Below, piece by piece: positions 3,765-26,934 of a DNA stretch of 64,000 bases (position 1 is the stretch's first letter; each line of letters starts with the position of its first letter). This stretch comes from Chloroflexota bacterium (lineage in GTDB: Bacteria; Chloroflexota; Limnocylindria; Limnocylindrales; CSP1-4). The stretch spans positions 2,350 through 66,349 of the forward strand of contig JACCVQ010000120.1 in NCBI GenBank assembly GCA_013698095.1, in the 5' to 3' direction. Below the pieces are notes generated by a model that saw only the letters and a list, made by a program, of their open reading frames with translations, made no database searches and had not been told where the DNA came from. A program made the position numbers and the translations under genes.

Positions 3765-3778
3765 CGCTCCGGGACGCG

Positions 3779-6340: not shown

Positions 6341-6850
6341 GTGACTGAACTGTCTGAAGGCGCCGTCGTCGCCCGTGTTCCGTTCCTCGTCGACGAGCGC
6401 CTCCAGGTCGTCGGCCGGCGCGAGCCCGTGACCGTCGAACCGGGCACGAGCCTGGCAGACTGCCTTGCGGCGATCCGCCGAACGGGGACCGGCGATTCGG
6501 TCTTCGTCGTGGACGCTGCCGGTCGCCTCGTGGGCGTCCTGACCGAGCGCGACATCTTCGCTCGCCTCGTGGGCCACGACGTCGCCCCGATCGACCTCGG
6601 CGAGCCGGTCGAGACGTTGATGACGACGAAGCCACACCACCTCCACCTGGACGAGACCGTCCGGGCGGCGATCGAGCTCATGCAGACCGGCCGCTACCGG
6701 AACGTGCCGCTGCTCGACGACGACGATGTCCTCCAGGGAGTCGTCCGGCCGCACGATTTGCTCAAGTACCTCGCCGAGGCGTTTCCCGAGGAGCTCCTGA
6801 ACCTTCCGCCACGACCGCACCAGACCATGAAACGCGCCGAGGGGGGCTGA
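6341..6850 (+). CDS. CBS domain pair protein
   Basis: Two CBS motifs (VFVVDAAGRLVGVLTERDI and NVPLLDDDDVLQGVVRPHDLL). GTG start at 6341. Confidence 0.75.
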   Translation: MTELSEGAVVARVPFLVDERLQVVGRREPVTVEPGTSLADCLAAIRRTGTGDSVFVVDAAGRLVGVLTERDIFARLVGHDVAPIDLGEPVETLMTTKPHHLHLDETVRAAIELMQTGRYRNVPLLDDDDVLQGVVRPHDLLKYLAEAFPEELLNLPPRPHQTMKRAEGG

Positions 6851-9939: not shown

Positions 9940-9943
9940 CTCG

Positions 9944-10453
9944 ATGCCGGCCATTCGCTGCCCCACCTGCGGCTTCGAGAACCTGCTCGGCTCGGACGTC
10001 TGCGACAACTGCGGCTCGGACCTCGCCGGTCACGACGTCCCGCAGTCGCCGACGACATTCCGGGGCCAGCTCCTCGGCGAGCATCTCGATGCGCTCGGGA
10101 TCAGCGCCCCGACGATCGTCGACGGCTCGGCCGAGGTGGACGACGCGATCCGCCGGATGCACGAGGACGAGATCGACTGCGTCCTCGTCGCCGAGGATGG
10201 CCGGCTGGTCGGGATCTTCACCGATCGCGATGCCGTCCTGAAGGTGGCAGGCCTGCCTCTCGAGAAGCGCACGATCGGGGACCTGATGACCCGCGACCCG
10301 GTGGTCCTCCGCCACGACGAGACGATCGCGGTCGCGATCAACAAGATGGCGGTCGGCGGGTTCCGGCACATCCCGATCGTCGAGGACGGCCGTCCGACCG
10401 GCGTCGTCACCGCGCGCGACGTGTTCCGCCACCTCGTCGAGTCGCTCGGCTGA
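9944..10453 (+). CDS. zinc-ribbon plus CBS domain pair protein
   Basis: N-terminal CPTCGFEN...CDNCGS zinc ribbon followed by two CBS motifs. Confidence 0.75.
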   Translation: MPAIRCPTCGFENLLGSDVCDNCGSDLAGHDVPQSPTTFRGQLLGEHLDALGISAPTIVDGSAEVDDAIRRMHEDEIDCVLVAEDGRLVGIFTDRDAVLKVAGLPLEKRTIGDLMTRDPVVLRHDETIAVAINKMAVGGFRHIPIVEDGRPTGVVTARDVFRHLVESLG

Positions 10454-10473
10454 GCCGGACCGCGCCGCCGATC

Positions 10474-10914
10474 GTGACCGCCAGCACGGGTCCCGCCCGC
10501 GTCCTCGTCCTCGCCGACGACCTGATCTGGTCGACGCGCCTCGCCGGCCACGTCCGGACCGCCGGTGCCGAGCCGGTCACGGTCCGAACCGCCGCCGGCT
10601 GGACAGCCGCGCTCGCCGAGTCCGACCTCGCCGGCGCGATCGTCGATCTGACGAGCCTGGCGTACGACGGCCTCGCCTCGATCGCTGCCGCCCGCGATGC
10701 CGGGGTGGCGGTCCTGGCGGTCGGCCAGCACGACGACCATGTCCTGCGTCGAGACGCGCTCGCCGTCGGCGCCGATCGGGTCCTCGCCTACCGCAAGCTG
10801 TTCGAGGATGGGCCGACGACGATCGCCCGCTGGCTCGCCGCGTCGGCGGCCTCGGACTCGGCCTCGGACTCGGCAGCGCTTGACGCCGACCACACGGAGC
10901 CTGCCACCCGATGA
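10474..10914 (+). CDS. response-regulator receiver (REC)-like domain protein, possibly degenerate
   Basis: VLVLADD...IVDL...AVGQH...AYRK pattern resembles a CheY-like receiver. GTG start. Confidence 0.5.
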   Translation: MTASTGPARVLVLADDLIWSTRLAGHVRTAGAEPVTVRTAAGWTAALAESDLAGAIVDLTSLAYDGLASIAAARDAGVAVLAVGQHDDHVLRRDALAVGADRVLAYRKLFEDGPTTIARWLAASAASDSASDSAALDADHTEPATR

Positions 10915-12074
10915 CGACCGCCGCCCCAGACCATCCCCGAATTCCTGGCGCCCGCTACACCGAGCGCCTCGAGCGGCTCGCTACCCTCGTCGGCGAGCGC
11001 GGCCTGGCCGCCGCGTTGATCGGCGTCGGCCCGGACCTCGACTACCTGACGGGCTACCGGGCGATGCCGCTCGAGCGGCTGACGATGCTGGCCGTCGTCG
11101 CCGGCGAGGCGCCGGTGCTGGTCGTCCCGCGTCTCGAGGAACCGGCCGCGCGAGCCGGCCTCCGAACGGACGTCGAGATCGCGACCTGGATGGAGACCGA
11201 CGATCCCCATGGGCTCGTCGCGGGGCTCGTCGAGCGAGCCCGCGGCCGCGCTTCCGCGACGATCGCCGTCTCCGACCGGCTCTGGTCGGTCCATCTCCTG
11301 CGCCTCCAAGGCGCGACTCCCGGCGCGCGCTGGGTGTCGGCCACAGAAGCGCTGCGCGAGCTCCGGATGGTCAAGGACGCCGACGAGATCGAGCTCCTCC
11401 GGCTGGCCGGCGCGGCGGCCGATCGGGTCGTCGACCAGATCGCATCGGGCCGGCTCATCGGCCGGACCGAGGAGGACGTTGCCCGCGAAGTCCGCACCCG
11501 GCTCCTCGCCGAAGGTCATGAGCTGGCGGAGTTCGCGATCGTCGCGTCCGGACCCAACTCGGCATCGCCGCATCACGAGGCCTCCGATCGAGTCATCCAG
11601 GCCGGCGAGCCGATCGTCCTCGACATCGGCGGGGCGCTCGGGGGCTACGGCAGCGACACGACCCGGACCCTGTGGGTGACCGGTGGCGACGACGCCAACG
11701 GCCCAACCGAGGAGTTCCGCCACCTCTTCGCGGTCCTGCTCGCGGCCCAGGTCGCGGCGACGGCCGCCGTCCGGCCGGGGATCGCTGCGGAGGCCGTTGA
11801 TCGGACCGCCCGCGACATCATCGACGGCGAGGGCTACGGCGAGAACTTCTTCCACCGGACCGGTCACGGCATCGGCCTCGAAGGCCACGAGGAGCCGTAT
11901 CTGGTGGCCGGCAACGGCGAGTCACTGGCCGAGGGCATGGCATTCAGCGTGGAGCCCGGGATCTACCTGCCTGGTCGCTACGGGGCGCGGATCGAGGACA
12001 TCGTGGTCTGCGGACCCGACGGGCCGGTCATCCTGAACAACGAGCCGCGCGAGCTGCGGGTCGTCGCCGGCTGA
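10911..12074 (+). CDS. M24 family Xaa-Pro aminopeptidase
   Basis: Creatinase N-terminal domain plus pita-bread fold with metal ligands (HRTGHGIGLEGHE, SVEPGIY). ATGA overlap with the upstream gene. Confidence 0.85.
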   Translation: MTTAAPDHPRIPGARYTERLERLATLVGERGLAAALIGVGPDLDYLTGYRAMPLERLTMLAVVAGEAPVLVVPRLEEPAARAGLRTDVEIATWMETDDPHGLVAGLVERARGRASATIAVSDRLWSVHLLRLQGATPGARWVSATEALRELRMVKDADEIELLRLAGAAADRVVDQIASGRLIGRTEEDVAREVRTRLLAEGHELAEFAIVASGPNSASPHHEASDRVIQAGEPIVLDIGGALGGYGSDTTRTLWVTGGDDANGPTEEFRHLFAVLLAAQVAATAAVRPGIAAEAVDRTARDIIDGEGYGENFFHRTGHGIGLEGHEEPYLVAGNGESLAEGMAFSVEPGIYLPGRYGARIEDIVVCGPDGPVILNNEPRELRVVAG

Positions 12075-12295
12075 CCCGCCACCCGCATCGCTCGGATCAC
12101 CCGCACGAGGCCGGCGTTCGCTGCCGCCCACAGGTCGATCCGCCCTCACACCGATGCCAGCGCGGTATCATCGCCGGACGACGGACCGGTTCCGGTCCGC
12201 CCCCAGGCTGAATTTTCGATGTCCTCGTCCCTTCTGCGGCGCTCCGGCGCCGCCGTCACCATCGGCGCTCCGGTTCGCCGGGGAACGACCGGACC

Positions 12296-13126
12296 GTGAG
12301 CCGGCGCCACCACGGCGGCCGCCCACATCGAACGGGCCAGACGCGGCCGTCCGAGCCCGCCCGTCCGCGCTCGGATGCGGCCCCAAACGTCGCTGATCAG
12401 GCCGCGCCGACCGCCCGGCCCGGCACGCACGGCGAGAGGCCAGCGCCTGGCCCGGGAGCGACCCAGCCAGCAGCCCTCCTCCGAGCCAAGCCCGCCGCCG
12501 AACCGTTCCAGGCAGGTCCAGCGGGTGCCGGAATGGATCGATCCCTGCCCGGTGAGCGGCGCGCCGCCGACCGACGATTCGGCGGTGATCGGGACCGGAC
12601 GGACGAGCGGGCCCATGGCGAACCGATGAGCCAGTCCGCGCCGGGCGACGGGCCCGCCGAATCGCGCCCCGCGCAGATCGCGTCGCCCGTCTCCGAGCCG
12701 ATGAACGGGGCGGGGTCCGCCGCGGTGGCCACCGGGTCTGCCTCGGCCGGCTTGGCCGTTCCCGCCGCCTCCGGCCCCGCTCCCGCGGCTTCCGGGCTCA
12801 CCGACCGCCGGCCCGAGCTCGGCGAGGCACCTGGTTTCAGCGCCGGCCCGGTCTGTACCGCTCCCCAGCTGCGCCGGTTCATCAAGAGCCGACCCTATGT
12901 CCCGATGCATGAGCTCCGTCGCCGCTTCGGGATCAATGGCAGCGAGGACGATGTCACCGGCATCACACTCGGGACGAGCACGATCTTCGTCGGCCTGCCC
13001 GGTCGCGAGGGGTCGCTGCTGGGCGAGCTGCTGCGGGGCGGCGAAGTCGGGTATGAGCTGTCGCTCGACCCGCGGACACCGATCGTGATCGGCCTGTATC
13101 CGATGCGGCCGGTCGCCCGCTCCTGA
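12296..13126 (+). CDS. hypothetical protein (Pro/Ala-rich N-terminus, conserved-looking ~90-aa C-terminal domain); the true start may be the ATG at 12626
   Basis: The C-terminal part (CTAPQLRRFIKSRPYVPMHELRRRFGI...IVIGLYPMRP) looks like a folded domain. The N-terminal part is low complexity. Confidence 0.3.
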   Translation: MSRRHHGGRPHRTGQTRPSEPARPRSDAAPNVADQAAPTARPGTHGERPAPGPGATQPAALLRAKPAAEPFQAGPAGAGMDRSLPGERRAADRRFGGDRDRTDERAHGEPMSQSAPGDGPAESRPAQIASPVSEPMNGAGSAAVATGSASAGLAVPAASGPAPAASGLTDRRPELGEAPGFSAGPVCTAPQLRRFIKSRPYVPMHELRRRFGINGSEDDVTGITLGTSTIFVGLPGREGSLLGELLRGGEVGYELSLDPRTPIVIGLYPMRPVARS

Positions 13127-13212
13127 GTTCAGATCCGCTCGAAAAGCGAGGAAACAAACGGTGCCGAGACGCACCGGCGCTATGTTGACAGCAGCCCCGT
13201 CGGATGCGACCG

Positions 13213-13240
13213 TTGACCGCGGACAAAAGTACTGGATACT
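13213..13240 (+). promoter_or_regulatory. candidate sigma-A-like promoter (TTGACC-N16-GATACT)
   Basis: Relatively AT-rich intergenic region about 100 nt upstream of the secreted-protein gene. Confidence 0.25.
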
Positions 13241-13345
13241 GGCCTGACCATTGGGGTCAACGGTCCGGGCCGCATCACCCACCCGGGGATGGCCAGAGGG
13301 GCCAAAGGACGAACCGGAGTGCGCTCCGGCGAAAGGAAGCTGGGT

Positions 13346-14299
13346 ATGCGCGCGAATTCTCTTCGACGGGTGGCCGCAGGAGCCACCGCTCTGCTGCTGA
13401 CAGGGGCCACGGTCCTGTCCATGACCGGCTCGGTCCTGGCGGCTGTGCCCACGGCGGACGCTGCGAGCGCGGCGATTCCGGCCAGCTACACGGCAGGCAA
13501 TGCCGCCGGCTTCCGGGGCACGTACCACTTCACCGACAGCAGCACGCTGGCCAAGCTTTACCTGACGCTGACGACCACCGGCGCCGACGCGAACGTCTAC
13601 TTCAGCGCCACGATGAACGGCGCCAACGCCGCGCGGTTCTGCACCGTCGGCACCGTGACGACGACGTGCACCTTCAAGTCGGTCCGGACAAATGACCGGT
13701 TCGTCATCACGTCGGCCTACTCCACGTCGGCAGCAGCGGTCACGGCCAATTTCAAGTGGGGCACCACCGGCTCCACGGGCAGCGACGGCGGGACCAGCCA
13801 CGGTGACACCTGGGACGACACCATCCGAACGGCCAGACTGAGCAGCGACGCGAACTATGGCGGCGGCTTCTCGATCGCGAGCGGCTCCTCGATCGGCAAC
13901 AACCAGGCGGTCTCGATGTCAAACCGCCAGGCGACCAGGATCGCAAACCTGGCCGCCGGCGTCCCGGGCAGCGTCCTCGACGGCGGCACCGCGACCGGGT
14001 CGTGCGTCAGCAACGCAACCGTGGACTGCGCCGCGCTGATCGGCGAGTGGTCCGAGGTCAACGTCGGCGACGGCCAGTCGTTCTCTACCGCCTTCACGAT
14101 CGTCATCACCTACTACTCGGGCACGCCGCGCGGCTTCGTCCATTCATACCTGGACGCGAACGGCGATTCCCAGCAGGAGACGATCGGGGCATGCCCCAAG
14201 AAGAATCCCGCCGCGGCCGCGCCCTGCTTCAGCTGGAGCGCATCCGCCAACCAGGCGACGATCTACACCCTCCACAACGGATCGTGGCGGGGCCTGTAG
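13346..14299 (+). CDS. secreted Thr/Ser/Ala-rich protein with 6 Cys, function unknown
   Basis: Signal peptide MRANSLRRVAAGATALLLTGATVLSMTGSVLAAVPTADA. No recognisable catalytic motifs. Confidence 0.6.
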   Translation: MRANSLRRVAAGATALLLTGATVLSMTGSVLAAVPTADAASAAIPASYTAGNAAGFRGTYHFTDSSTLAKLYLTLTTTGADANVYFSATMNGANAARFCTVGTVTTTCTFKSVRTNDRFVITSAYSTSAAAVTANFKWGTTGSTGSDGGTSHGDTWDDTIRTARLSSDANYGGGFSIASGSSIGNNQAVSMSNRQATRIANLAAGVPGSVLDGGTATGSCVSNATVDCAALIGEWSEVNVGDGQSFSTAFTIVITYYSGTPRGFVHSYLDANGDSQQETIGACPKKNPAAAAPCFSWSASANQATIYTLHNGSWRGL

Positions 14300-14303
14300 A
14301 CCG

Positions 14304-17300
14304 CTAGCCTGCGACCGCCACCGCAAGCGCCGCAAGGGTCGCGTCCGCGGCGACGGTGGCGCCCTTCCGCCGATACAGGTCCAGGGCCTCCTGCAAGGGA
14401 GGCCCTGCCTCGTTGCCACGGCCGCTTCCCGCCAGGATCGCGCCGAGATCGACCAGGGCATCGGCCCGCAGGACCAGGTCGACGGTCCCCGCCGTCAGTT
14501 CGACCGCTTCGCGGGCCAGGGCCTCGGCCTCCGCACCGCGGCCTCGGGCGAGCAGGACACTCGCTTCCGCCTGGCGCCACAGGATCTGGGCCTCGTTGTC
14601 GTCGGGGTCAGCGAGGCTCCGGGTGAGCTCGGCCGAAGCGGCGGCGCCGGCGCCGTCGCCAAGGGCCAAGCGGGCTCGCGAGTGGAGTCCGGCGACAGTT
14701 GAGCGGAAGTAGCGCTCGCCGATCGCCTCGAGGTCGACGAGGTCGCGCGTGAGCGCGCCGTCCGCGGCGACCGGATCGCCGGCCAGGAATGCGATACGCG
14801 ACGTTTCGATCGAGGTGGTCGAGGCCGTGACGCTCGGACCCAGGTCGACCAGGACGCGGCGGCTCTCGATCGCGAGCGACGTCGCCTCCTCGAAGCGGCC
14901 CACCATTGCCAGCAGGAGCCCCCGGATCAGACCGATGACGGCCTCGGCCATGCGGTCCCCGGCCACCTCCTGGGCGAGGGCCTCGCACTCACGGATCGCG
15001 TCCGGCACCGGGGTGTCGCCATGGAGCGAGAGCACGGCGTAGGCGATCGATCCACGGGCAGTCGCCCGGCTGTCCCCGGTCTTCCGGGCGGCGGCGATGA
15101 CTCCCTGGATTGCAACCCTGGCCTCGGTGTAGCGGCCGGCCGTCCCGTGGATGGCCGCGAGCAGCCGCCAGGCGAGAGCGAGCCCGACGTCGTCGTCGGC
15201 GGCCTGGAACCACGCGATGTGCTCCTCGGTTTCCGCAATCGCCGCCGCCGCGTGTCCGACGACCTCCGTGCCGAGGTGGGTGTGGATGCTGCGGGCGACC
15301 GCGGCATGTCGCGCGAGACGTTCGTCGCCGAGCTGATCCGCGGCTGATCGAGCCTGGTCGATCGATGCCAGCGACCCGCCGAAGTCACCGTTCTCGAGGA
15401 GGACCGACCCGAGATCGAGGAGGATCTGGACCCGCGTCGGCGAGTCGGGTCCGAGCAGCATCGATGCTCGGCGGAGGAGGTTTGCCGCCGCCGGAAGGTC
15501 ACCCCGCGAGAACGCGCGCCGGCCGGCGTTGGCGAGCTTCTCCGCGGCACGTTCGGCAATGGACCGGCCCTGGTCATCGAGCGGCCCCAGCTCGGAGCGG
15601 TAGCGAACGGCCTGCTCGAGGTGATAGCCCAGGATCTCCTCGAACTCGGTCTCGCGGCCGCGCTCGCGATTGACCGGCTCGGCCCACTCGACGAACCGCT
15701 CGTGGAGGGTCGCCCGGGCCCGCTTCAGGAGGCTCTGGTAGGCGGCATCGCGGACGAGGATGTGGTGGAAGCGGAAGGTCGGGTCCTCTGCATCGGCCGC
15801 CTGCGGGTGGACGAACTGCTTGCGATCGAGGGCCGTGAGGTGGTCCTCGACGGCCGGCCGGATCGCGTCGGGCACGAGCTGTTCGATGGCCGCTGCCGCG
15901 AACACGAGACCGATGACCGCGGCGGGGTCGACAACTGCCCGTTCCTGGCGGGTCAGCGCGTCGAGGCGGGCAGCCAGGAGGGCCGCGATCGTTGGCGGCA
16001 CGACGACGTCGCCGCCCGGGTCGCGCTCGCGGAGCATGGTGACGATCTGCTCGATGTAGAGCGGGTTGCCCTCGGCCGCGGCGACGACCTTGGCGCGGGT
16101 CTCAGCGGCAAGCTCCACACCGGCCAGGAGCTGTTCGATCATCACTTCGACATCGGCCGGCTGGAGCGGAGTGAGATCGATCCGACCGACGGTCGCCGAA
16201 GCGAGCCATTCGCCGTGGACGTCGGCGATCTCGGGCCGGGCCGAGCAGAGCACGAGGATCGGTGCGTCCCGGACCGAGTCGACGACGTGTTCGAGGAAGT
16301 CGATGAACGTCGCTTCGGCCGAGTGGATGTCGTCGATGAGGATCACGACCGGGCGCGTCGCGGCCTGCGCCTCGAGCAGCTTGCGGGCGCCCCAGAAGAG
16401 CTCAGCCATCGGATGGGCCGAGGTCGACAGGCCGATTGCGGCGGCGACCCGGTCAACGATCGCTTCGCGGTCAGGCTCGTCCTCGGGCAGGAGGGTCGCG
16501 ATCCGGTCGCGGGCAACCTCTGCCGAGTCGTCCTCGCCGATCCGGGCGGCCGAGCGGACGATCTCGACCAGCGGCCAGAAAGTGATCCCGTCACCGTAGG
16601 CCAGACAGCGGCCCCGGAACACGGTCGCCTCGGCCTCGACCGAGGCGAGGAAGTCGGAGATCAGGCGCGTCTTGCCGACGCCGGCATCACCGATGACGGT
16701 CACGAGCCGGGCCAGCCGGGCCGACGAGATGGCCCGGAACGAATCCTGGAGGAGTCCCATCTCCGCGACGCGCCCGACGAACGGCGCGGCCGAGGCCGGC
16801 GTCGCGGTTGGCGCGATCGCCCGGACGTCGATCAGGCGGTAGGCCGGGACCGGCTCCGGCTTGCCCTTCAGCATCAGCTCGACCCGCTCCACCTCGACGT
16901 GGTTGCGGACCAGCTGATATGTCACCTCGCCGATCAGGACCTCGCCGGCCGGCGCGTTCTGCTCGAGCCGGGCAGTCACGTTGACCGCGTCGCCGGTTGC
17001 CAGGTTCTGGTCGGCATTCGGGTCCATGTTGGCCACGATCTCGCCGGTGTTGACTCCGGTCCGATTCGTGATCTGGACGCCGTAGAAGCGCTGGAGATCC
17101 TCGTTCAGGCGGGCCAGCACCTTCTGCATCCCGAACGCCGCCCGGACCGCCCGCAGGGCATCGTCCTCGTGGGCCCGGATCAGGCCGAACACCGCCATGA
17201 TGGCGTCGCCAATGTTCTTCTCGACCTTGCCGCCGTGGCGCTCGATCTCGACTGCCATCGAACTGAAGTAGCGGGCCTTGATCTCGTTCATCGCCTCGGC

Positions 17301-17777
17301 ATCGATCGAGCCCGTGAGGGCGGTCGAGTCCTTGAGGTCGGTGAAGACGAGCGTCACGAACTTGCGGACTTCCTGGGCCGGCAGGATCGGCGTCGTGGCG
17401 GCGGGCCGGGCCGGGGCGGCAGCCAGAAGGCTGCCCAACGGCATCGCATCCCCGGACGCCGCCCGGGACAGGGACACGCCGCTGTCGCCGGGCGTGGACC
17501 GCGACGGGGCCGGCGGCACCGGGTGATGCGGCGCGCTCGAAGGGCCACCGGCCGGACGAGCCGCCGGGCCCCCGTCAGGAGACGTCGGTCCGGGCGTGCC
17601 TGCCGCGAGCGGTGTTCCACAGAACCCGCAGAGCCGGAACTTTGAGGGGTTCTCCTCGCCGCAGCCACCGCACACGATCGTGTCCGGGACCGGCGCGAGC
17701 GACGACCCGCAGAACCCGCACAGGCGGAATCGGGCCGGGTTTTCCTCGCCGCATGACAGGCAGTGGACGGTGTCCAT
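14304..17777 (-). CDS. double zinc-ribbon / class III nucleotidyl cyclase / STAND (AAA) NTPase / TPR-repeat multidomain protein
   Basis: Two CxxC...CxxC ribbons (CLSCGEEN...CGFCGS; CGGCGEEN...CGFCGT). Cyclase motifs (FTDLKDST, NIGDAIMAVFG, NVTARLEQ). Walker A IGDAGVGKTR. Long helical TPR-like C-terminus without an HTH. Start at ATG 17777 (MDTVHC). Confidence 0.85.
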   Translation of the reverse strand: MDTVHCLSCGEENPARFRLCGFCGSSLAPVPDTIVCGGCGEENPSKFRLCGFCGTPLAAGTPGPTSPDGGPAARPAGGPSSAPHHPVPPAPSRSTPGDSGVSLSRAASGDAMPLGSLLAAAPARPAATTPILPAQEVRKFVTLVFTDLKDSTALTGSIDAEAMNEIKARYFSSMAVEIERHGGKVEKNIGDAIMAVFGLIRAHEDDALRAVRAAFGMQKVLARLNEDLQRFYGVQITNRTGVNTGEIVANMDPNADQNLATGDAVNVTARLEQNAPAGEVLIGEVTYQLVRNHVEVERVELMLKGKPEPVPAYRLIDVRAIAPTATPASAAPFVGRVAEMGLLQDSFRAISSARLARLVTVIGDAGVGKTRLISDFLASVEAEATVFRGRCLAYGDGITFWPLVEIVRSAARIGEDDSAEVARDRIATLLPEDEPDREAIVDRVAAAIGLSTSAHPMAELFWGARKLLEAQAATRPVVILIDDIHSAEATFIDFLEHVVDSVRDAPILVLCSARPEIADVHGEWLASATVGRIDLTPLQPADVEVMIEQLLAGVELAAETRAKVVAAAEGNPLYIEQIVTMLRERDPGGDVVVPPTIAALLAARLDALTRQERAVVDPAAVIGLVFAAAAIEQLVPDAIRPAVEDHLTALDRKQFVHPQAADAEDPTFRFHHILVRDAAYQSLLKRARATLHERFVEWAEPVNRERGRETEFEEILGYHLEQAVRYRSELGPLDDQGRSIAERAAEKLANAGRRAFSRGDLPAAANLLRRASMLLGPDSPTRVQILLDLGSVLLENGDFGGSLASIDQARSAADQLGDERLARHAAVARSIHTHLGTEVVGHAAAAIAETEEHIAWFQAADDDVGLALAWRLLAAIHGTAGRYTEARVAIQGVIAAARKTGDSRATARGSIAYAVLSLHGDTPVPDAIRECEALAQEVAGDRMAEAVIGLIRGLLLAMVGRFEEATSLAIESRRVLVDLGPSVTASTTSIETSRIAFLAGDPVAADGALTRDLVDLEAIGERYFRSTVAGLHSRARLALGDGAGAAASAELTRSLADPDDNEAQILWRQAEASVLLARGRGAEAEALAREAVELTAGTVDLVLRADALVDLGAILAGSGRGNEAGPPLQEALDLYRRKGATVAADATLAALAVAVAG

Positions 17778-17878
17778 GTCCTGAGAATACGACGGCGCTC
17801 GATGTTGTCCGCCTCGCACCGCGTACGATGCGCCCGAGCGGCGTCGCCGCGGCCCGCGCGACGGAGGGTGATGTCCAG

Positions 17879-18580
17879 ATGGCGGCGGCCGACGACCTGA
17901 TGGCCCGGGATGCGCTCCGCGCGAGCGGCCTCTTTGCCAAGGCCGACGAGCAGGCCATCGACGCATTGGTTCGGGTCTTCCGGATTCGCCGGTTCCGACG
18001 GGGCGAGACCGTGTTCCACCAGGGCGACCCGGGCGACGCGCTGTTCGTCCTCGCCAGCGGATCGGTCAAGGTTGTCCTGCCGAGCGATGAGGGCGCCGAG
18101 CCCGCCATCGTCGCGATCCTCGGCGCCGGCGAGTTCTTCGGCGAGCTGGCGATCCTCGACGGCGCGCCCCATTCGGCCACGATCGTTGCGGTCGAGGCCT
18201 CCGAGACCCTCGTCCTCCATCGCGACACCTTCCTGGAGCTGATCGACGCCGACCCGGGGCTTCGGCGCGCCCTTCTCGCTGGCCTCGCTGCCGAGATTCG
18301 ACGCCTGACCGGCCACGTCGAGGATCTCCACTTCCTCGACCTGCCGGGCCGGCTCGCATCGCGCATCGTTCGCCTGGCTGCGAGCGCCGGGATCACCAGT
18401 GGTGAGGCCCGGATCGGATGGCCCTACACCCAGTCGGAACTGGCCGGAATGATCGGCGGATCGCGCCAGTCGGTGAACCGCCTGCTCGCCGACCTGGCCG
18501 AGCAGGGTCTCCTCCGACTCGAGCGTGACCTGCTCATCGTCCATGACATCGAGCGTCTCGCCGCAACGGTGGAGCGGTGA
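17879..18580 (+). CDS. Crp/Fnr family transcriptional regulator (cNMP-binding plus HTH)
   Basis: cNMP-binding motif FFGELAIL...HSATIVA and C-terminal HTH SQSELAGMIGGSRQSVNRLLADL. Divergent from the cyclase gene. Confidence 0.85.
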   Translation: MAAADDLMARDALRASGLFAKADEQAIDALVRVFRIRRFRRGETVFHQGDPGDALFVLASGSVKVVLPSDEGAEPAIVAILGAGEFFGELAILDGAPHSATIVAVEASETLVLHRDTFLELIDADPGLRRALLAGLAAEIRRLTGHVEDLHFLDLPGRLASRIVRLAASAGITSGEARIGWPYTQSELAGMIGGSRQSVNRLLADLAEQGLLRLERDLLIVHDIERLAATVER

Positions 18581-19377
18581 CCGGGGCCGGCGCAGCGGAT
18601 CCCCTGATCCCGACGCTCCGGGCGGTCGCCCTCCGGGTCGAGGCGGCCCGTCGTCTCTCGCCGCCGGCCGGCAGCGCGGTCCTGCACTCGATCGTGGAGG
18701 CGACGGTCGCCCTGTTCGATGCCGAGGCCGCCTCGATCGCTCTCCACGACGTGGCGGCCGATCGCCTGGTCTTCACCGTGGCGGCGGGCGACCAGGGCCA
18801 GGGCGTGGTCGGCCTGACGATTGGACCGGCCGAAGGCGTCGCGGGCTACGTCTTCTCGAGTGGTCAGCCGCTCGCTCTCTCGGACGTGGAGCGGGACGCC
18901 CGGTTTGGCCGGACGACGGCGGAGCGGACCGGCTACGTGCCGCGCTCCCTGGTGGCGGTGCCGCTCCTCGACGACGAGGGCATCCTGGGCGTGCTCGAGG
19001 TCCTCGACAAACGGGGCGCAGGCGCGTCCTTCGATCTTCGCGACATCGAGCTCGCGAGCGTGTTCGCCCGCCAGGCCGCGGTCGCGATCCGGAGCAGCCG
19101 CGTCGAGCGCGACACGGCCACGTTGCTCGGCACGGTGCTCGACGCCGTGAACCGCGCCCCACCGGACGACCTCGACGTCGAGCCGATCGTTGCCGCGGCC
19201 GTTGCCGCTCTTGACGGCGACGGGGCCGAGCCGCTCTGGGCGCTGGCCGACCAGGTTGCCCGGATCCGGGCGATCGAGCCGGCCCAGCTCGATCTGGTGC
19301 GCGACCTCCTGGCGGTCCTCGTGACCCGAGCCGAGCGCGGGGGCGCGAGCAGCCGCGCCCGACCGCGCCCCCGATGA
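18577..19377 (+). CDS. GAF domain protein
   Basis: GAF fold pattern (SIALHD...GVAGYVFSSGQPLALSDV...VAVPLLDDEGILGVLEVLD). GTGA overlap with the crp stop. Confidence 0.75.
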   Translation: MTGAGAADPLIPTLRAVALRVEAARRLSPPAGSAVLHSIVEATVALFDAEAASIALHDVAADRLVFTVAAGDQGQGVVGLTIGPAEGVAGYVFSSGQPLALSDVERDARFGRTTAERTGYVPRSLVAVPLLDDEGILGVLEVLDKRGAGASFDLRDIELASVFARQAAVAIRSSRVERDTATLLGTVLDAVNRAPPDDLDVEPIVAAAVAALDGDGAEPLWALADQVARIRAIEPAQLDLVRDLLAVLVTRAERGGASSRARPRPR

Positions 19378-20186
19378 GCGGCCCACTCCCGGCCTGGAGC
19401 GAGCCGTTCGCGGCCGATCATCGAGCGACTCTCGATCGCACCGCGCCGTTCGCGGCCGTCGATCGCGGCTGGGCGTTCGGTGCCGGGGACGGCGCAGGCG
19501 TCGTCGTCGCGGTCGTTGACTCGGGAGTCGAGGGTGGCCATCCCGCGGTCGGCGGCGCGCTGCGCGAGAGCGTCCGGGTCGAGCTCGACGGTGACGACGC
19601 GGTAATCATCGCCGACGATCCGACCGATGCGGTCGGTCACGGCACCGCGTGTGCCGGGATCGTCCATGCGCTCGCTCCGGCGGCGACGCTCCTCTCGGTC
19701 CGCGTCCTCGGGACCGACAATCGGGGCAAGGGGCTTGCGTTCGCGACCGGCCTGGACTGGGCGATCAACAACGGCGCCTCGGTCATCAACCTCAGCCTGT
19801 CGTCGCGGAGCGAGTCGATGTACGCGACCTTCCACGATCTTGCCGATCGGGCGTACTTCGCGAACGCGCTCCTCGTCTGCGCGGCGAACAACGTCGCGGT
19901 TGCGAGCTACCCGTCGCTGTTCGCCGCGGTCGTGTCGGTCGCCGCCCACGACGTTCGCGATCCGGACATCTGGTTCTACAACCCCCATCCCCCGGTCGAG
20001 TTCGGGGCGTACGGCTTGGACGTCGACGTGGCCTGGAAGGACGGCGGCCGGATCGTCGCGACCGGCAACAGCTTCGCGGCGCCGCACATCGCCGGTCTGG
20101 CGGCGCGCATCCGGGCCGCCCATCCGGGGGCATCGCCGTTCGAGATCAAGACGATCCTCGCCGCGACCGCCTCGCCGCCGGCCTGA
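19374..20186 (+). CDS. S8 family (subtilisin-like) serine peptidase, catalytic domain only, no signal peptide
   Basis: Catalytic triad motifs VVDSGV (Asp), HGTACAG (His) and GNSFAAPH (Ser). ATGA overlap with the GAF gene. Confidence 0.8.
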   Translation: MSGPLPAWSEPFAADHRATLDRTAPFAAVDRGWAFGAGDGAGVVVAVVDSGVEGGHPAVGGALRESVRVELDGDDAVIIADDPTDAVGHGTACAGIVHALAPAATLLSVRVLGTDNRGKGLAFATGLDWAINNGASVINLSLSSRSESMYATFHDLADRAYFANALLVCAANNVAVASYPSLFAAVVSVAAHDVRDPDIWFYNPHPPVEFGAYGLDVDVAWKDGGRIVATGNSFAAPHIAGLAARIRAAHPGASPFEIKTILAATASPPA

Positions 20187-20296
20187 ACCGGACAGACCCG
20201 GACCGAGCCGGACAGAGCCGGACAGAGCGACGCCCCGTCCGTGCCCGGGACGGGGCGCTGGGTGAGGGGTCTATCACCCGGAAATGGGCGCAGGTG

Positions 20297-20623
20297 TCAG
20301 CGAACGTGGCCCTCGACATCATCGTCAACCACTTCGCCGCCACCGGACGGCCGGCGGAAGTCGCCACCGGTGCCGGGGAGTCGCGCGGGGACCGGGCCAA
20401 CGCCGTGGCCTTCGACATCGTGCTCGGTGCCGTCGACCTCGCCGCCGCCTGACGGCCGGCGGAAGTCGCCAGCGGTGCCGGGCAGACGCGGCGCGAAGCC
20501 GTCGCCCGACCGGACACGGTGGCCTTCGACGTCACCGGTCACGTTCAAGCCGTCGTTGGTGTTGACCACGGCATCGGGCTCGCCGGTGACCTGTTCACGG
20601 GGCAGGCGAGAGACCTTCTTCAT
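20297..20623 (-). CDS. small acidic Gly/His-rich protein (108 aa) with ~35-aa internal tandem repeats, no Cys and no TM
   Basis: AGGAAAcggtaATG RBS. Repeats RLPGT[AG]GDFRRPSGGGEV and three DVEGH motifs. Seven nucleotide differences between the repeat copies, six synonymous in this frame. Confidence 0.55.
   Translation of the reverse strand: MKKVSRLPREQVTGEPDAVVNTNDGLNVTGDVEGHRVRSGDGFAPRLPGTAGDFRRPSGGGEVDGTEHDVEGHGVGPVPARLPGTGGDFRRPSGGGEVVDDDVEGHVR
20312..20556. repeat. imperfect tandem direct repeat (~105-bp period, about 2.3 copies) inside the small protein gene
   Basis: gacggccggcggaagtcgcca[c/g]cggtgccggg... recurs at 20346 and 20451. Confidence 0.6.
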
Positions 20624-20894
20624 TACCGTTTCCTCCATCGTGACCCCAACCCGGGCATTCCGCCCGACTCGTATCGTCGTGCTACATGGGCCACGATACG
20701 CGCCCCGGCCCGCTACGTGCAGCCGCGGCGTGACGGCCTGCGTGTCAAGTGCGGCACACGGCGCCGGGCGCCCCATCGCGGCAACGATTCGGGCGCCCAG
20801 TGGACCAGGCGCGGCGGAGAGCCGTGCCCGGCGCTCTTTCGGGCGCCCGGTGACCGAACGGACGGAGGAACGGGTGCCGGACGTCGAATCGTGG

Positions 20895-22772
20895 TCAGTA
20901 GCTCTTCGGGAGCGCCTCGGCGCTTGGCCGCGCCGTCCGGAGGTCCTTGAGCGATGCCTGGTCAACACCGGAGAACCGAGGGAGATCGGCGCTGTTCGTC
21001 CGGCTCAGTCGCGCGGTCAGGGTCGAGAGGAACAAGGATCCCAGCTCCGGAACCGCCATGAGCGAGCGAAGGGTGGCCGCCGGGACCTCGACCACGGTCG
21101 TGGCTTCCTCGGCCACCACCGTCGCCGTCCGGCGGCTGCCGGTCAGCGCAGCGATCTCGCCGAAGAAGTCACCGGGCGCCATCGAAGCCAGTGATCGGTA
21201 GCTGCCGTCAAGATCGGGCGTGCCCGCCACGGCTCGGCCGTCCAGGATGAAGTAGGCCGCGTCGCCGACCTCGCCCTCGCCGACGATCGTCGTTCCGGCC
21301 GGGACATCGCGGACGGTCGAGGCCGCCAGCAGCGCGTCGCGCGCGCCGGCATCGATCCGCGCCAGGGCCGGCAGGTGACCGGCCAGCCTGTCGAAGTCGG
21401 CGAGCGTGACCTTTCGGAACGCGACCGCGCCGGCCGGTTGATCCTTCGCCCGGCGGAGGGCCGACATCGCCTGGAGCCATTCCGTGGCCGGCCGGCCGAG
21501 CCCGGGCATCACGGCCGTGACGAGACCGGCGACGACGAGCACGAGCGACGAGACGACCACGAGGATTCGGACGTCGATGATGTCGGCCAGACCGGCGAGG
21601 GCGATGCCGACGAGGAAGACGACATCGCGGGCGACCGCGAACGCCGCGAACACCCGGCCGCGGAGTTCGCGCGGCGTGTTGCGCTGGAGGAGGACGCGCC
21701 GGGTGATCGAGGAGGGAGCGTTGAAGAAGCCCGAGATCGTGACAAGGATGATCGCCACAGGAATGGTCGTCGCAAAGCCGTACGCGACCCCGGCGACGCC
21801 CATGGCGATCGTCGCAACGACGATCCACGATCCCTCCCGGAAGCGATCGGCGAAGCGGGCCATCAGGAGGCTGCCGACCACGAACCCGACCGACGTCATG
21901 CCTTCCTGGATGCCGTACTCGAACTCGGAGGCATGGAGCGCATCGATCGCGAACGGCAGGAGCAGGACGTTCCACAGGCCGAACGAGAAGTAGACCGGCA
22001 CGCCGCTCAGGAAGAGGGATCGCAGGAGCGGCGTGTGGACGAGCGTCGACACGCCTTCTTTCAGGTTCTCGACGACGACCTTGATGCTCGTGTCGCCCTC
22101 GGCCTCGATCTTCCCGACCCCCACGAACAGCAGGAGCGCGGCCGACACGAGGAACGTCACGCCGTCGAGGTAGAACGCCCACTCGATGCTGAATGCGGTC
22201 GCGAGCAATCCCGACAGGGCGAACCCGATCGAGGTCGAGCCGAAGGAGCTGATCATGATCCACGAGTTCGCCGCTGCCAGTTCCTCGTCGGTCGCGACCT
22301 CGGGCAGGAGGGCGTCGTTGGCCGGGTTGAAGAACTGCGAGATCGTGCTCACCGCCGCGACGGCGAGGTACAGCAAGACGATGTTGATGCTGATGAGGAA
22401 CGGGATCGCGAACACGATCCCCGCCCGAACCAGGTCGGCGATGATCATGATCTTGCGCCGGTCGTAGCGGTCCACGAAGACGCCCGCGAATAGCCCGATC
22501 AGGAGCGTCGGGATGGCCGTCGCCGCGAACATCAAGCCGACCGCCAGAGCGGAGCCTGTAGCTGTGAAGACGAGAATGCCGGCGGCGAGGTCGGTCAGGG
22601 CGGTCCCGATCGTCGACACGAGCTGGGCCGACCAGAGAAGCCGGAAGTCGCGCTTCCGGAAGACCGAGAACGGCGACGGAGCGCCGGCGGCGACCGCTCC
22701 GCCGTCAAGCGTCGTCGCCCCGCCGTCCAGGGGCTGCCCGTCGGCGCCACTTCCTGTTGCCGAATCGGTCAC
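20895..22772 (-). CDS. MFS transporter fused to a C-terminal cyclic nucleotide-binding domain
   Basis: Twelve-TM MFS core followed by a cNMP-binding motif (GDFFGEIAALTGSRRTATVVA). GTG start at 22772 with GAGGAAG RBS. Confidence 0.8.
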   Translation of the reverse strand: MTDSATGSGADGQPLDGGATTLDGGAVAAGAPSPFSVFRKRDFRLLWSAQLVSTIGTALTDLAAGILVFTATGSALAVGLMFAATAIPTLLIGLFAGVFVDRYDRRKIMIIADLVRAGIVFAIPFLISINIVLLYLAVAAVSTISQFFNPANDALLPEVATDEELAAANSWIMISSFGSTSIGFALSGLLATAFSIEWAFYLDGVTFLVSAALLLFVGVGKIEAEGDTSIKVVVENLKEGVSTLVHTPLLRSLFLSGVPVYFSFGLWNVLLLPFAIDALHASEFEYGIQEGMTSVGFVVGSLLMARFADRFREGSWIVVATIAMGVAGVAYGFATTIPVAIILVTISGFFNAPSSITRRVLLQRNTPRELRGRVFAAFAVARDVVFLVGIALAGLADIIDVRILVVVSSLVLVVAGLVTAVMPGLGRPATEWLQAMSALRRAKDQPAGAVAFRKVTLADFDRLAGHLPALARIDAGARDALLAASTVRDVPAGTTIVGEGEVGDAAYFILDGRAVAGTPDLDGSYRSLASMAPGDFFGEIAALTGSRRTATVVAEEATTVVEVPAATLRSLMAVPELGSLFLSTLTARLSRTNSADLPRFSGVDQASLKDLRTARPSAEALPKSY

Positions 22773-24216: not shown

Positions 24217-24218
<2 letters not shown>
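24202..24218. promoter_or_regulatory. perfect 17-bp palindrome ATACTCCC-C-GGGAGTAT overlapping the copA start codon (candidate CsoR-like operator)
   Basis: Eight-bp arms around a central C, with the ATG at 24217 inside the right arm. Confidence 0.4.

Positions 24219-26930
<2,712 letters not shown>

Positions 26931-26934
<4 letters not shown>

Follow-up and report, generated by a model that had tools for sequence, protein, structure and literature searches.

What joins a nucleotidyl cyclase, a Crp-family regulator, a GAF-domain protein, a subtilisin-like peptidase, a small repeat protein and a permease carrying a cyclic-nucleotide-binding domain, all encoded between positions 14304 and 22772 of this DNA? 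A sequence-only reading had proposed a second-messenger circuit controlling export and proteolysis, and had not recognised the combination as a described system; we also found no description of the six-gene combination in the literature that could be searched. The window, by which we mean the whole stretch of 64,000 nucleotides that was analysed, belongs to a Chloroflexota (Candidatus Limnocylindria) MAG and not to an actinobacterium, as had been assumed. With moderate confidence, we read the interval as one copy of a widespread cassette making, processing and exporting ribosomal peptides under cyclic-nucleotide control, for whose proteins we infer cNMP binding, proteolysis and export.

Gene content of the interval

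Pfam profile searches of the open reading frames found every proposed domain in its proposed place (Table 1), including a stand-alone CAP-domain protein expected near 38150 and located at 38018-38581. Of four cNMP-receiver-type domains said to lie within 8.5 kb, three are in the interval and the fourth is that distant protein. The overlaps of stop and start codons at crp/GAF (GTGA) and GAF/S8 (ATGA) are real, as read directly from the sequence. Independent gene calls on contig JAITZE010000156.1 (NCBI GCA_020063865.1) give the same lengths for the cyclase (1157 aa), GAF protein (266), S8 peptidase (270), repeat protein (108) and permease (625), the last also agreeing with a GTG start at 22772 preceded by a ribosome-binding site, and place the Crp start earlier (250 aa versus 233 aa here).

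Table 1. Coordinates of features in and beside the interval
Feature	Position	Strand	Composition and evidence
Hypothetical protein, 336 aa	13289..14299	+	Hydrophobic N-terminal segment, possible signal peptide; convergent with cyclase gene
Sensor cyclase, 1157 aa	14304..17777	-	DZR/DUF7577 zinc ribbons (double), Guanylate_cyc, AAA_16 (STAND-like) ATPase, TPR (Pfam)
Divergent intergenic region, 101 bp	17778..17878	.	Between cyclase gene and crp; conserved CGCGTACGATGC box (17820-17831), -10-like TACGAT
Crp-family regulator, 233 aa	17879..18580	+	cNMP_binding + HTH_Crp_2 (Pfam)
GAF-domain protein, 266 aa	18577..19377	+	GAF + ~90-aa C-terminal tail (Pfam); start overlaps crp stop, GTGA
Subtilisin-like S8 peptidase, cytoplasmic, 270 aa	19374..20186	+	Pfam, 99 bits; start overlaps GAF stop, ATGA
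10-bp tandem repeat (GCCGGACAGA x5.2), then 27-nt GC-rich hairpin (20231-20257)	20177..20257	.	TRF; RNA fold
Repeat protein REP, 108 aa	20297..20623	-	ORF + GGAGG ribosome-binding site
Palindromic operator candidate TGTGCCGCACTTGACA	20743..20758	-	~120 bp upstream of REP ATG; variant of family-wide TGTC-N8-GACA box
MFS permease (MFS_1/MFS_3, EntS-like, 12 TM) + C-terminal cNMP_binding domain, 625 aa	20895..22772	-	Pfam

The cyclase reading frame could extend to 17966, but the codon-position GC of this extension is non-coding. The true start therefore lies at 17777 (MDTVHC), which makes the divergent gap to crp 101 bp, close to the 100 bp or so originally claimed. Its Guanylate_cyc domain scores 64.8 bits and, aligned to Pseudomonas aeruginosa CyaB (3r5g), has both metal-binding Asp residues, the substrate Lys and the Asn/Arg pair. 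The CGCGTACGATGC box between the two genes is invariant in the window and in relatives L001, L002 and L004, cyclase-less loci included; a sigma-70 consensus scan found no promoter in this region.

Nucleotide-binding residues, by which the sequence-only reading proposed to judge its CAP domains, are canonical in the permease, whose phosphate-binding cassette is FFGEIAALTGSRRTATVVA (FGE...RRTA), but altered in Crp. The latter has CRP of M. tuberculosis and GlxR of C. glutamicum as its closest solved relatives (138 bits), and its cassette, GAPHSAT, has His where the Arg contacting the cNMP phosphate would stand. The window and six relatives keep this His, whereas distant orthologues retain Arg; because of the substitution, Crp of this lineage may bind weakly, take another ligand or act ligand-free. 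The GAF protein has as nearest solved counterparts the GAF domains of an HD-GYP protein, Lcd1 (cAMP), PDE5/2/10 and CyaB2; it lacks the full NKFDE signature, and sequence alone cannot assign its ligand.

The S8 peptidase has neither signal peptide nor prodomain and carries an N-terminal PAWSxxF motif; its Asp/His/Ser triad is intact and aligns, together with the oxyanion Asn, to subtilisin BPN'. The tandem repeat and hairpin that lie where the S8 and repeat-protein genes converge probably form a bidirectional terminator, which a consensus terminator scan did not match because the hairpin has no T-tract.

Conservation of the cassette

Within Limnocylindria, S8 is 80-91% identical and the flanking genes are syntenic too (an M24 peptidase upstream, an MGMT-like gene and a copper P-type ATPase downstream, the latter 1.4 kb past the MFS gene), so close relatives alone cannot prove linkage. 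We therefore rely on 80 distant species-level loci, retrieved only via GAF/S8 and searched by tblastn with the window proteins. Full-length Crp homologues are present in 56 of these, the permease with its cNMP-binding domain (MFS::CNB) in 43, the cyclase-ATPase in 21 (within 10 kb of GAF-S8; another seven loci have other cyclases) and REP in 49-58, almost all no more than 5 kb from GAF+S8. Gene order and strands are shuffled between lineages, and clustering of all neighbouring ORFs around GAF-S8 in the 80 loci revealed no other recurrent family. One locus, L008, is a single same-strand operon, REP-GAF-S8-MFS::CNB-cyclase, with the cyclase gene directly inside it. The GAF gene adjoins S8 in 79 of the 80, always as a separate overlapping gene, a count inflated by the prior ranking of loci against a GAF+S8 query. 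GAF-S8 fusion proteins apparent among cluster representatives may be artefacts; none occurs in any of the 79 genome loci where a GAF gene adjoins S8.

In the reciprocal direction, 120 metagenome loci were picked by a DNA pattern of two DVEGH motifs alone; 92 contain a cassette gene, and all eight that extend 2.5 kb or more in both directions contain GAF+S8. The families recur in Actinomycetota and several Chloroflexota classes, and a partial set in Abditibacteriaceae, Acidobacteriota and other single MAGs. The six-gene cassette is real and present in hundreds of soil bacterial species. Lack of conserved gene order in relatives had been named as fatal to the circuit; since the genes recur in many lineages, albeit rearranged, and a motif-first search recovers GAF+S8, conservation is what we find. 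The proposed circuit is partly supported: its genes form a functional unit rather than a chance neighbourhood, with families that recur around GAF+S8. The cyclase is a facultative member, absent at the same locus in the close relatives L001-L003. A cyclase within 10 kb in only about a third of the distant loci also weakens our preferred reading.

These results bear on whether there is a system at all. Independent cAMP-regulon or housekeeping genes could be neighbours through inherited synteny within one class, as the syntenic Limnocylindria flanks would suggest, but we give this almost no credence: it is already contradicted by the recurrence of the cassette's five families, and of no other, around GAF-S8 in different orders across Actinomycetota and a number of Chloroflexota classes, by the recovery of cassette genes from the motif alone and by the concentration of the operator described below.

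Membership of the 336-aa protein upstream is doubtful. Its presence varies together with that of the cyclase across Limnocylindria (neither gene was found in L001-L003); L065 has a homologue (43% identity, 229 bits), and L004 and L005 have in this place a length-matched protein without detectable tblastn similarity; a Pfam search gave no match, and the distant loci of other lineages yielded no counterpart.

The repeat protein and its proposed processing

The repeat protein had been treated as a bystander; the evidence now points to a probable substrate. Its gene comprises a 55-nt repeat in two copies and a 20-nt repeat in three, and the protein has three DVEGH motifs (nt 20519-20533, 20405-20419 and 20306-20320) flanking two units of 33-38 aa that contain LPGTxGDFRRPSGGGEV. 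REP is kept in L001, L002 and L004 with in-frame indels. The family is unannotated, with no Pfam or NCBIfam match, and its members carry 2-13 copies of an acidic-D(V/T)(E/Q)(G/A)(H/Q)-basic motif, preceded by acidic and followed by basic residues, with hypervariable spacers between the copies. The motif is encoded by 24 different 15-mers, synonymous variation that places the constraint at the protein level. Beside S8, the strict motif identifies REP in 49 of the 80 distant loci, and DAEGQ or other relaxed variants in about nine more.

The candidate operator TGTGCCGCACTTGACA is identical at 14 of 16 positions in the window, L001, L002 and L004, where its flanks diverge. Across 1.47 Mb of loci, TGTC-N8-GACA occurs 65 times; 34 of these boxes precede a REP start by 300 bp or less, where 0.78 would be expected, a concentration of about 40-fold, and they are often paired, 23 bp apart.

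Support for processing also comes from five loci (L034, L043, L048, L050 and L079) in which the same S8 adjoins RamC_N-kinase-LanC synthetases and Nif11-like precursors, that is, class III/IV lanthipeptide clusters; a LanC domain was not detected in the L050 synthetase. GAF and Crp are likewise present in L034, L048 and L050, whose precursors read DVSGY, EVSGY or EVAGQ at the leader/core junction. An adjacent ABC exporter has a C-terminal cNMP_binding domain in L034 and L050 (Pfam-confirmed), with near-full-length tblastn homologues in L048 and L058. The S8 leader peptidase ElxP recognises (D/E-5)(L/V-4)xx(Q-1), a motif of the same shape as that of REP (PMC10885120). REP is probably a multi-copy peptide precursor, the substrate of S8 and the point of the system.

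We propose the following course. The zinc-ribbon-cyclase-ATPase-TPR protein would sense a cue and produce cAMP or a related cNMP; Crp, as a pathway-specific regulator of the repeat-protein gene, would bind the TGT(C/G)-N8-GACA box and switch REP on. The cytoplasmic S8, acting as a processing protease controlled by its translationally coupled, putatively ligand-sensing GAF partner, would then cut REP after the motif His/Gln, at a site with an acidic P5, Val/Thr at P4 and His/Gln at P1, as for ElxP. In this genome, the cuts would release a 38-aa and a 33-aa peptide, each ending in ...DVEGH, for export by the MFS permease, a putative peptide exporter gated by its own cNMP-binding domain. For an MFS permease, peptides of 13-38 aa would be a bulky load, and the NCBIfam matches of this one (H+ antiporter, EntS, ryptide-exporter) are all below cutoff. 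Clustering of neighbouring ORFs revealed no modification enzyme around the cassette, so the product, if a peptide, would be linear and unmodified, a kind that dedicated clusters do not usually make.

The same absence of modification enzymes is compatible with a real cassette whose REP stays uncleaved, as a disordered acidic/His-rich protein (a metal buffer, chaperone or protease pseudosubstrate/regulator), while S8 has other cellular targets, for example in stress or dormancy proteolysis, and the permease moves a small molecule. REP is indeed rich in Asp, Glu and His, some members extremely so in His (in L032, DDDTEGHGHHHKNF x11); a copper ATPase lies nearby in Limnocylindria; and MFS_3/EntS-type permeases usually carry small molecules. 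We nevertheless regard this as unlikely. The otherwise invariant motif His is Gln throughout a subgroup (DAEGQ; L026, L036, L044-L046, L068), a change that fits a protease P1 better than a metal ligand, and metal genes do not recur outside Limnocylindria. Short conserved motifs with hypervariable spacers are the signature of multi-core precursors, and a motif of this shape is also found where leader and core meet in the lanthipeptide precursors beside the same S8.

Comparison with known systems

Judged from sequence, the cassette is most likely a cNMP-controlled peptide maturation and export module in which a sensor-controlled protease cuts a small tandem-repeat protein. LanP-type S8 leader peptidases (NisP, ElxP, LicP, CylA and the class III AmyP) share with the window S8 a subtilisin fold and, on the reading proposed here, a place beside ribosomal precursors and cleavage at a short motif. 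In contrast to them, the window S8 has no signal peptide, prodomain or anchor, is coupled to a GAF protein and would act on a tandem-repeat protein whose surroundings lack a modification enzyme. No lanthipeptide-protease model matches this peptidase; its best NCBIfam matches, mycosin and QhpE, fall below cutoff (NF049966, the second best, scores 106 bits against 165). QhpE is a small cytoplasmic subtilisin that removes the QhpC leader during quinohemoprotein amine dehydrogenase maturation, and resembles the window S8 in size (~220-270 aa), in lacking prodomain and signal peptide and in the intracellular ribosomal-peptide substrate that we propose here; no QhpC, QhpD or QhpG gene lies near the window S8.

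Kex2-processed fungal repeat proteins (alpha-factor, KEPs, dikaritin precursors) and multi-core cyanobactin precursors (PatE with PatA/PatG) yield many short peptides from hypervariable cores between conserved protease-recognition motifs, released by S8-family enzymes. The resemblance to REP is analogous, not homologous: those systems use dibasic sites in the eukaryotic secretory pathway, or cyanobactin heterocyclisation and macrocyclisation, and none is known to have a GAF partner or to be controlled by cyclic nucleotides. A match to the PatA/PatG model reaches only 31.9 bits against a cutoff of 421 (NCBIfam).

The regulatory parts recall the actinobacterial cAMP toolkit, with its CRP (Rv3676/GlxR), cyclase-ATPase-TPR proteins (Rv0386 type) and fusions of MFS or other transporters to cNMP-binding domains (Rv3728/Rv3239c type); attachment of such a domain to the C-terminus of an MFS permease is reportedly a known architecture. 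Crp is closest to the M. tuberculosis and GlxR proteins, and the cyclase shares the layout of cyclase, AAA ATPase and TPR. Toolkit proteins, however, are scattered members of a global regulon, whereas their counterparts here are grouped with a protease and a repeat protein in one cassette; the cyclase carries zinc ribbons at its N-terminus and lacks a LuxR HTH, and Crp has the candidate operator TGTC-N8-GACA rather than TGTGA-N6-TCACA, besides the lineage-specific His for Arg.

Pycsar, which pairs PycC with a cNMP-binding effector, likewise sets a class III-fold cyclase beside fusions of cNMP-binding and membrane modules. In a Pycsar/CBASS-like anti-phage or abortive-infection system, the STAND-type cyclase would sense infection and its cNMP would activate membrane and protease effectors. 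Defence systems commonly contain STAND ATPase-TPR sensors and protease effectors, the cassette is patchily distributed across lineages in shuffled order, and PADLOC matches the cyclase domain to PycC (60.6 bits at best) and both CNB domains to PycTIR or effectors. We consider this very unlikely, however, as those matches are at the domain level only and no complete system model was matched. The membrane protein is a full 12-TM EntS/antiporter-type permease, and the cassette lacks any short TM or TIR effector; a transcription factor of its own and an operator before a small repeat gene are part of it; the cyclase is dispensable; the Limnocylindria copy sits in conserved housekeeping synteny, with its highly similar S8, rather than in a variable island; and lanthipeptide biosynthetic clusters contain the same module.

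Genes of the interval

The best-supported reading of the interval is that its genes form a module in which a cyclic nucleotide controls the maturation and export of peptides. This cassette comprises genes for a 108-aa DVEGH repeat protein (REP), a GAF protein, an S8 peptidase, a Crp regulator and an MFS permease carrying a cyclic-nucleotide (cNMP)-binding domain (CNB; MFS::CNB), with or without a sensor cyclase. Genes were delimited by six-frame ORFs, codon-position GC and Pfam in a window of ~70% GC, and by these measures all the cassette features described in the sequence-only reading are present. The start/stop overlaps GTGA (crp/GAF) and ATGA (GAF/S8) are real, as read in the sequence, and the divergent spacing of about 100 bp between the cyclase gene and crp comes to 101 bp, because the extension of the cyclase ORF to 17966 has a non-coding composition by codon-position GC. 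Gene calls on NCBI GCA_020063865.1 (JAITZE010000156.1) give the same lengths for all cassette genes except Crp, which has an earlier start codon there (250 aa versus 233 aa here). The actinobacterial lineage assumed in the same reading had to be abandoned, as the closest homologues (80–100% identical) come from Chloroflexota / Candidatus Limnocylindrales MAGs. Scans for the sigma-70 consensus, the terminator consensus and Rfam families returned nothing within the interval.

Features discussed in the text, in window positions unless a locus is named
Feature	Position	Strand	Basis
551-aa ORF	12146-13801	-	
336-aa protein	13289-14299	+	
1157-aa protein: two zinc ribbons, class III cyclase, AAA_16 ATPase, TPRs	14304-17777	-	ORF/Pfam
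Crp, 233 aa	17879-18580	+	ORF/Pfam
GAF protein	18577-19377	+	ORF/Pfam
S8 peptidase	19374-20186	+	ORF/Pfam
10-bp tandem repeat	20177-20228		
GC-rich hairpin	20231-20257		
REP, 108-aa repeat protein	20297-20623	-	ORF
MFS permease with C-terminal cNMP-binding domain	20895-22772	-	ORF/Pfam
Copper-type P1B ATPase	24217-26934	+	
Stand-alone cNMP-binding protein	38018-38581	+	
L017, first REP gene	3343-3840	-	
L017, second REP gene	6461-6799	+	
L034, lanthipeptide-type cluster, class III/IV	9683-21276		
L048, lanthipeptide-type cluster, class III/IV	9785-18316		
L050, lanthipeptide-type cluster, class III/IV	9821-17740		
L043 and L079, lanthipeptide-type clusters, class III/IV	around 10000		

The catalytic domain of the cyclase (PF00211, 64.8 bits against a Pfam cutoff of 21.9) aligns to CyaB (3r5g) with FTD, IGD, EKNIGD and VNVTARLE all kept and with both metal-binding Asp residues, the substrate Lys and the transition-state Asn/Arg present. 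The alignment does not allow the product to be assigned as cAMP or another cNMP, since the second base-specifying position aligns to Asn/Leu, which is non-canonical (Asp/Thr indicates ATP). Rv0386-type cyclase–ATPase–TPR–LuxR proteins end in a LuxR HTH, whereas Pfam detects no HTH domain in the window cyclase, which scores 205 bits against TIGR03903 (TOMM kinase-cyclase), below the cutoff of 705.75. Among five close Limnocylindria relatives (L001–L005), some genomes have the cyclase and its neighbour, a 336-aa protein, and others lack them. The 336-aa protein has a hydrophobic N-terminal segment, maybe a signal peptide, and no Pfam match; it occurs only where the cyclase gene occurs (L001–L003 lack both), which suggests joint gain or loss of the two genes. 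L004 and L005 carry a 337-aa protein in the same position with no similarity detectable by tblastn, and L065, another Limnocylindrales genome, has a homologue that is 43% identical.

For the GAF protein (PF01590, 67.6 bits in Pfam), the nearest solved structures include cNMP-binding GAFs, with an HD-GYP GAF as the top match; its motif, DK...F...DI, keeps three of the five NKFDE positions, and the ligand is not assignable from sequence. In the S8 peptidase (PF00082, 99 bits in Pfam), VVDSG, GHGT, AANN and GNSFAAPH align to the catalytic positions of BPN', namely the Asp–His–Ser triad and the oxyanion Asn. Secreted subtilisins and LanP have a signal peptide and an I9-type propeptide, whereas the window enzyme has neither a signal peptide nor an Inhibitor_I9 propeptide (Pfam) and is thus predicted to be cytoplasmic; its N terminus is not hydrophobic and its subtilisin core begins at about residue 17–40. 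Five proteins of the same prodomain-less S8 clade (P0255, P0257, P0265, P0278 and P0301) are fused to other modules, and partners in this clade include a Ser/Thr kinase domain (~600 aa), a full ABC exporter (ABC_membrane + ABC_tran + S8, 967 aa) and, by eye, an apparent N-terminal LuxR-type HTH. The S8 and REP genes converge on a GC-rich hairpin, and a 10-bp tandem repeat (GCCGGACAGA, 5.2 copies) overlaps the stop codon of S8 and continues into that hairpin.

Crp belongs to the Crp/FNR family, with an N-terminal cNMP_binding domain (PF00027, 92 bits) and a C-terminal HTH (PF13545, 56 bits) in Pfam, and it aligns over its full length to M. tuberculosis CRP, its closest match together with GlxR. 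In cAMP-binding CRPs, the phosphate cassette reads Gly-Glu ... Arg-Ser/Thr-Ala and the Arg contacts the cyclic phosphate. The window cassette is FGELAILDGAPHSAT (GAPHSAT), in which His97 of the 233-aa protein replaces this Arg, so that Crp stands apart from CRP proper; its score against the E. coli CRP equivalog is 95 bits, below the cutoff of 266. The His is common to the window's subclade (the window, L001–L005 and L054), and the Arg is kept in L065 and in all distant orthologues. The permease is an MFS–CNB fusion (MFS_1 119 bits, MFS_3 89 bits, C-terminal cNMP_binding 67 bits in Pfam) with a canonical cassette, FFGEIAALTGSRRTATVVA (FGE...RRTA), and PRTATV is kept in its CNB at distant loci. 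The sequence-only reading had taken these domains for nucleotide receivers, which the canonical cassette of the permease fits and the His of the window Crp does not. The stand-alone CAP protein that it had placed near 38150 is there, ~15 kb from the cassette, with the canonical cassette FFGEIALLAEGPRTAT and without an output domain.

A Pycsar-like defence system, for which domain-level PycC/PycTIR matches in PADLOC are the one point in favour, is an improbable account of these domains. In Pycsar, PycC is paired with an effector that joins a CNB to a killing module, either a short TM or a TIR; in the cassette, the CNBs belong to a Crp regulator and to a permease with 12 TM segments. Arguments against Pycsar are that the permease is complete, that the cassette has a dedicated regulator with its operator, and that it occurs in housekeeping synteny and in a lanthipeptide context.

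REP family, gene linkage and operator

REP is the centre of the system. The window protein, with three motifs and 111 bp from the S8 stop, belongs to a family that we define by at least two acidic-[DE][VTA][EQ][GA][HQ]-basic motifs 13–38 aa apart in a protein of 46–290 aa, at most 5 kb from GAF+S8. Members consist of a short leader, 2–13 motifs at that spacing and a 3–8-aa tail past the last one; acidic and basic runs flank each motif and the spacers are hypervariable. In relatives, an invariant MKKxxRLPRE N terminus accompanies repeated DVEGH...PGTGGDxxRRPxGGGE units, and among distant loci L008 encodes MSDD...(DDDVEGHVARPRAN) x6..., L032 (DDDTEGHGHHHKNFADAE) x11 and L083 (ADEVEAHSLTTKPASKPSSKPSSK) x10. 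As many as 24 different 15-mers encode D[VT]EGH, and the constraint is therefore on the protein. Neither Pfam nor NCBIfam gave a match for the window REP or five distant members, even at E ≤ 1, and the 17 matches of a homology search with one member are all 'hypothetical'.

Instead of being a substrate, REP might be a disordered protein that binds metal or has a regulatory role, a reading that we consider unlikely and that is weakened both by His-to-Gln variants of the motif and by the hypervariable spacers. A metal-binding or ATCUN role for EGH loses ground to the same variants and to the lack of recurrent metal genes.

The five close relatives share the order Crp–GAF–S8, small protein, MFS::CNB, and prove little about linkage because their flanks are syntenic too. 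We searched the S8 peptidase against 50%-identity representatives and then scanned one genome per GTDB species with an alignment of distant members, which yielded at least 561 stretches encoding relatives. The best 80 of these cover Actinomycetota (Mycobacteriales, Frankiaceae, Nocardioides, Acidimicrobiia and Thermoleophilia), Chloroflexota (Chloroflexia, Ktedonobacteria, Anaerolineae, Dehalococcoidia and Limnocylindria) and single MAGs of five other groups. A GAF gene adjoins S8, always as a separate gene, in 79 of the 80 loci, a figure inflated by the ranking of loci against a GAF+S8 query. With tblastn of the window proteins, a full-length Crp homologue was found in 56/80 loci, MFS::CNB in 43/80 (plus 6 with MFS only) and the zinc-ribbon–cyclase–ATPase in 21/80 (plus 7 other cyclases), almost all within 5 kb and in many orders and orientations; L008 has them as a single same-strand operon, REP–GAF–S8–MFS::CNB–cyclase. 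Small ORFs with at least two D[VTIAL]E[GA]H motifs lie beside GAF–S8 in 32/80 distant loci, or 38 in total with the five close relatives and the window; a relaxed motif places REP in 49/80, and beyond these about nine further loci have REP with DAEGQ and other relaxed variants. Clustering of all neighbour ORFs within 6 kb, with a codon-position filter against antisense shadow ORFs, revealed no other recurrent family. Neighbourhood conservation, which the sequence-only reading had named as a check, is thus borne out in content, the cassette families recurring around GAF–S8 in distant lineages with their order varied. Fusion of GAF to S8 as Rosetta-stone evidence was rejected: four cluster representatives look fused, but at the 79 genome loci where a GAF gene adjoins S8 the two are in no case fused.

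The linkage also holds in reverse. Among 120 metagenome loci picked solely by a two-DVEGH DNA pattern, 92 contain a cassette gene, though most contigs are short, and the eight with at least 2.5 kb on both sides include GAF+S8 in 8/8, MFS in 7/8 and Crp in 6/8.

Footprinting upstream of the window REP identified TGTGCCGCACTTGACA, identical at 14 of 16 positions in four relatives while its flanks diverge. The corresponding TGTC-N8-GACA palindrome occurs 65 times in 1.47 Mb of distant loci, and 34 of these boxes lie within 300 bp upstream of a REP start (0.78 expected), mostly at 75–120 bp and often as pairs 23 bp apart. It is a 16-bp palindrome of Crp/FNR type with a core different from the classical CRP box TGTGA-N6-TCACA, for which the window shows no enrichment (5 matches versus 9.3 expected), and the cassette Crp homologue is the obvious candidate to bind it. 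That the cassette genes are neighbours by synteny alone is very improbable, being contradicted by the linkage at distant loci, the concentration of operators and the motif-first reverse test.

Two side observations concern the operator. The subclade with the Crp His has TGTG in the left half-site instead of TGTC. Some genomes (L017, L052, L021 and L015) have two REP genes per cassette; those of L017 flank GAF–S8–Crp on opposite strands, each preceded by the operator TGTCGGGAGGATGACA.

Lanthipeptide-cluster variants

In L034 (Abditibacteriaceae), L048 (Chloroflexia) and L050 (Actinomycetes), GAF–S8–Crp is followed by lanthipeptide-type genes. Their precursors are Nif11-like with hypervariable cores rich in Cys, Thr, Tyr and Trp, and the leader/core junctions, DVSGY, EVSGY and EVAGQ, have the shape of the REP motif. 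The synthetase is of the class III/IV type RamC_N–kinase–LanC, although no LanC domain was detected in the ORF of L050. Pfam confirms an ABC exporter ending in a cNMP_binding domain in L034 and L050, L048 and L058 have near-full-length tblastn homologues of it, and L034 additionally encodes a TPR-S-cyclase and a further CNB protein. The synthetase lies beside S8 in L079 and in L043, the cultured Ktedonosporobacter rubrisoli SCAWS-G2.

The LanKC-like synthetase is confined to these five variants. A RiPP cluster such as that of a lanthipeptide joins a precursor to at least one modification enzyme, whereas Pfam finds no such enzyme in the window and none recurs in REP-type loci. S8 enzymes are known in such pathways: the leader peptidase ElxP recognises (D/E-5)(L/V-4)xx(Q-1), and class III lanthipeptides are processed by S8 enzymes such as AmyP (PMC10885120). 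Peptide export linked to cNMP is not discussed in Haft 2010 (PMC2887384) or PMC4558948.

Proposed mechanism, significance and neighbouring genes

The biochemical steps that we infer beyond the observed gene linkage, motif architecture, operator position and lanthipeptide-cluster variants are as follows. The facultative sensor cyclase would provide the input, and its cyclic nucleotide would gate transcription of REP through Crp, processing through GAF–S8 and export through the CNB of the MFS permease. By analogy with ElxP, S8 would cut REP after His/Gln, with Val/Thr in S4, and the window REP would then be divided into a leader of 35 aa, two peptides (38 and 33 aa) and a tail of 2 aa.

More tentatively, and with some reserve, we propose that bacteria may have a widespread and so far unrecognised equivalent of the repeat peptides that Kex2 processes in fungi. 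In this view, a cytoplasmic subtilisin under GAF control would release families of short linear peptides, particular to each species, from DVEGH-repeat precursors, and soil Actinomycetota and Chloroflexota would secrete them. A single cyclic nucleotide, made by a dedicated STAND sensor cyclase, would act on all three levels together, gating transcription through Crp, processing through GAF–S8 and export through a CNB-fused MFS or ABC transporter. If true, the protease would be the first of RiPP type gated by a ligand, the transporters would be the first peptide exporters gated by a cNMP, and the peptides would be a candidate cell–cell signalling language in these largely uncultured lineages.

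The domain families are ordinary, and S8 leader peptidases, multi-core precursors and CNB-fused transporters are known kinds. The sequence-only reading had not recognised the combination as a described system, and we likewise found no description in the Pfam, NCBIfam and PADLOC copies or the full-text literature searched, be it of the DVEGH repeat-precursor family, an obligatory GAF partner of a protease, the cassette-specific operator or three-level cNMP gating. If the model holds, it adds a ribosomal peptide precursor family now annotated only as hypothetical or missed altogether, a protease partnered by a small-molecule sensor domain, and peptide exporters under direct cyclic-nucleotide gating. 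cAMP signalling in Actinomycetota and Chloroflexota would also gain a concrete output; to our knowledge, most of the many cyclases and cNMP-binding proteins in these phyla have no known function. The presence of the same module in class III/IV lanthipeptide clusters suggests that silent peptide clusters might be switched on by supplying the nucleotide or expressing the cyclase, and makes S8 a candidate for the leader peptidase, often an unknown enzyme in such clusters. The cassette is widespread, compact and directly testable, with Phycicoccus flavus CMS6Z-2 (L062) and Ktedonosporobacter rubrisoli as cultured carriers and a compact operon in L008.

Two stretches near the cassette are recorded here. 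Between the genes for an M24 peptidase and the 336-aa protein (12075-13288), there is no confident gene: a 551-aa ORF has no Pfam match and failed the codon-position GC filter, and relatives have a variable hypothetical gene of 93–228 aa at the matching stretch. On the other side, a copper-type P1B ATPase combines HMA, E1-E2 and hydrolase domains with a C-terminal cupredoxin domain in one polypeptide; L001 and L004 keep it, and two ORFs of ~80–96 aa lie upstream.
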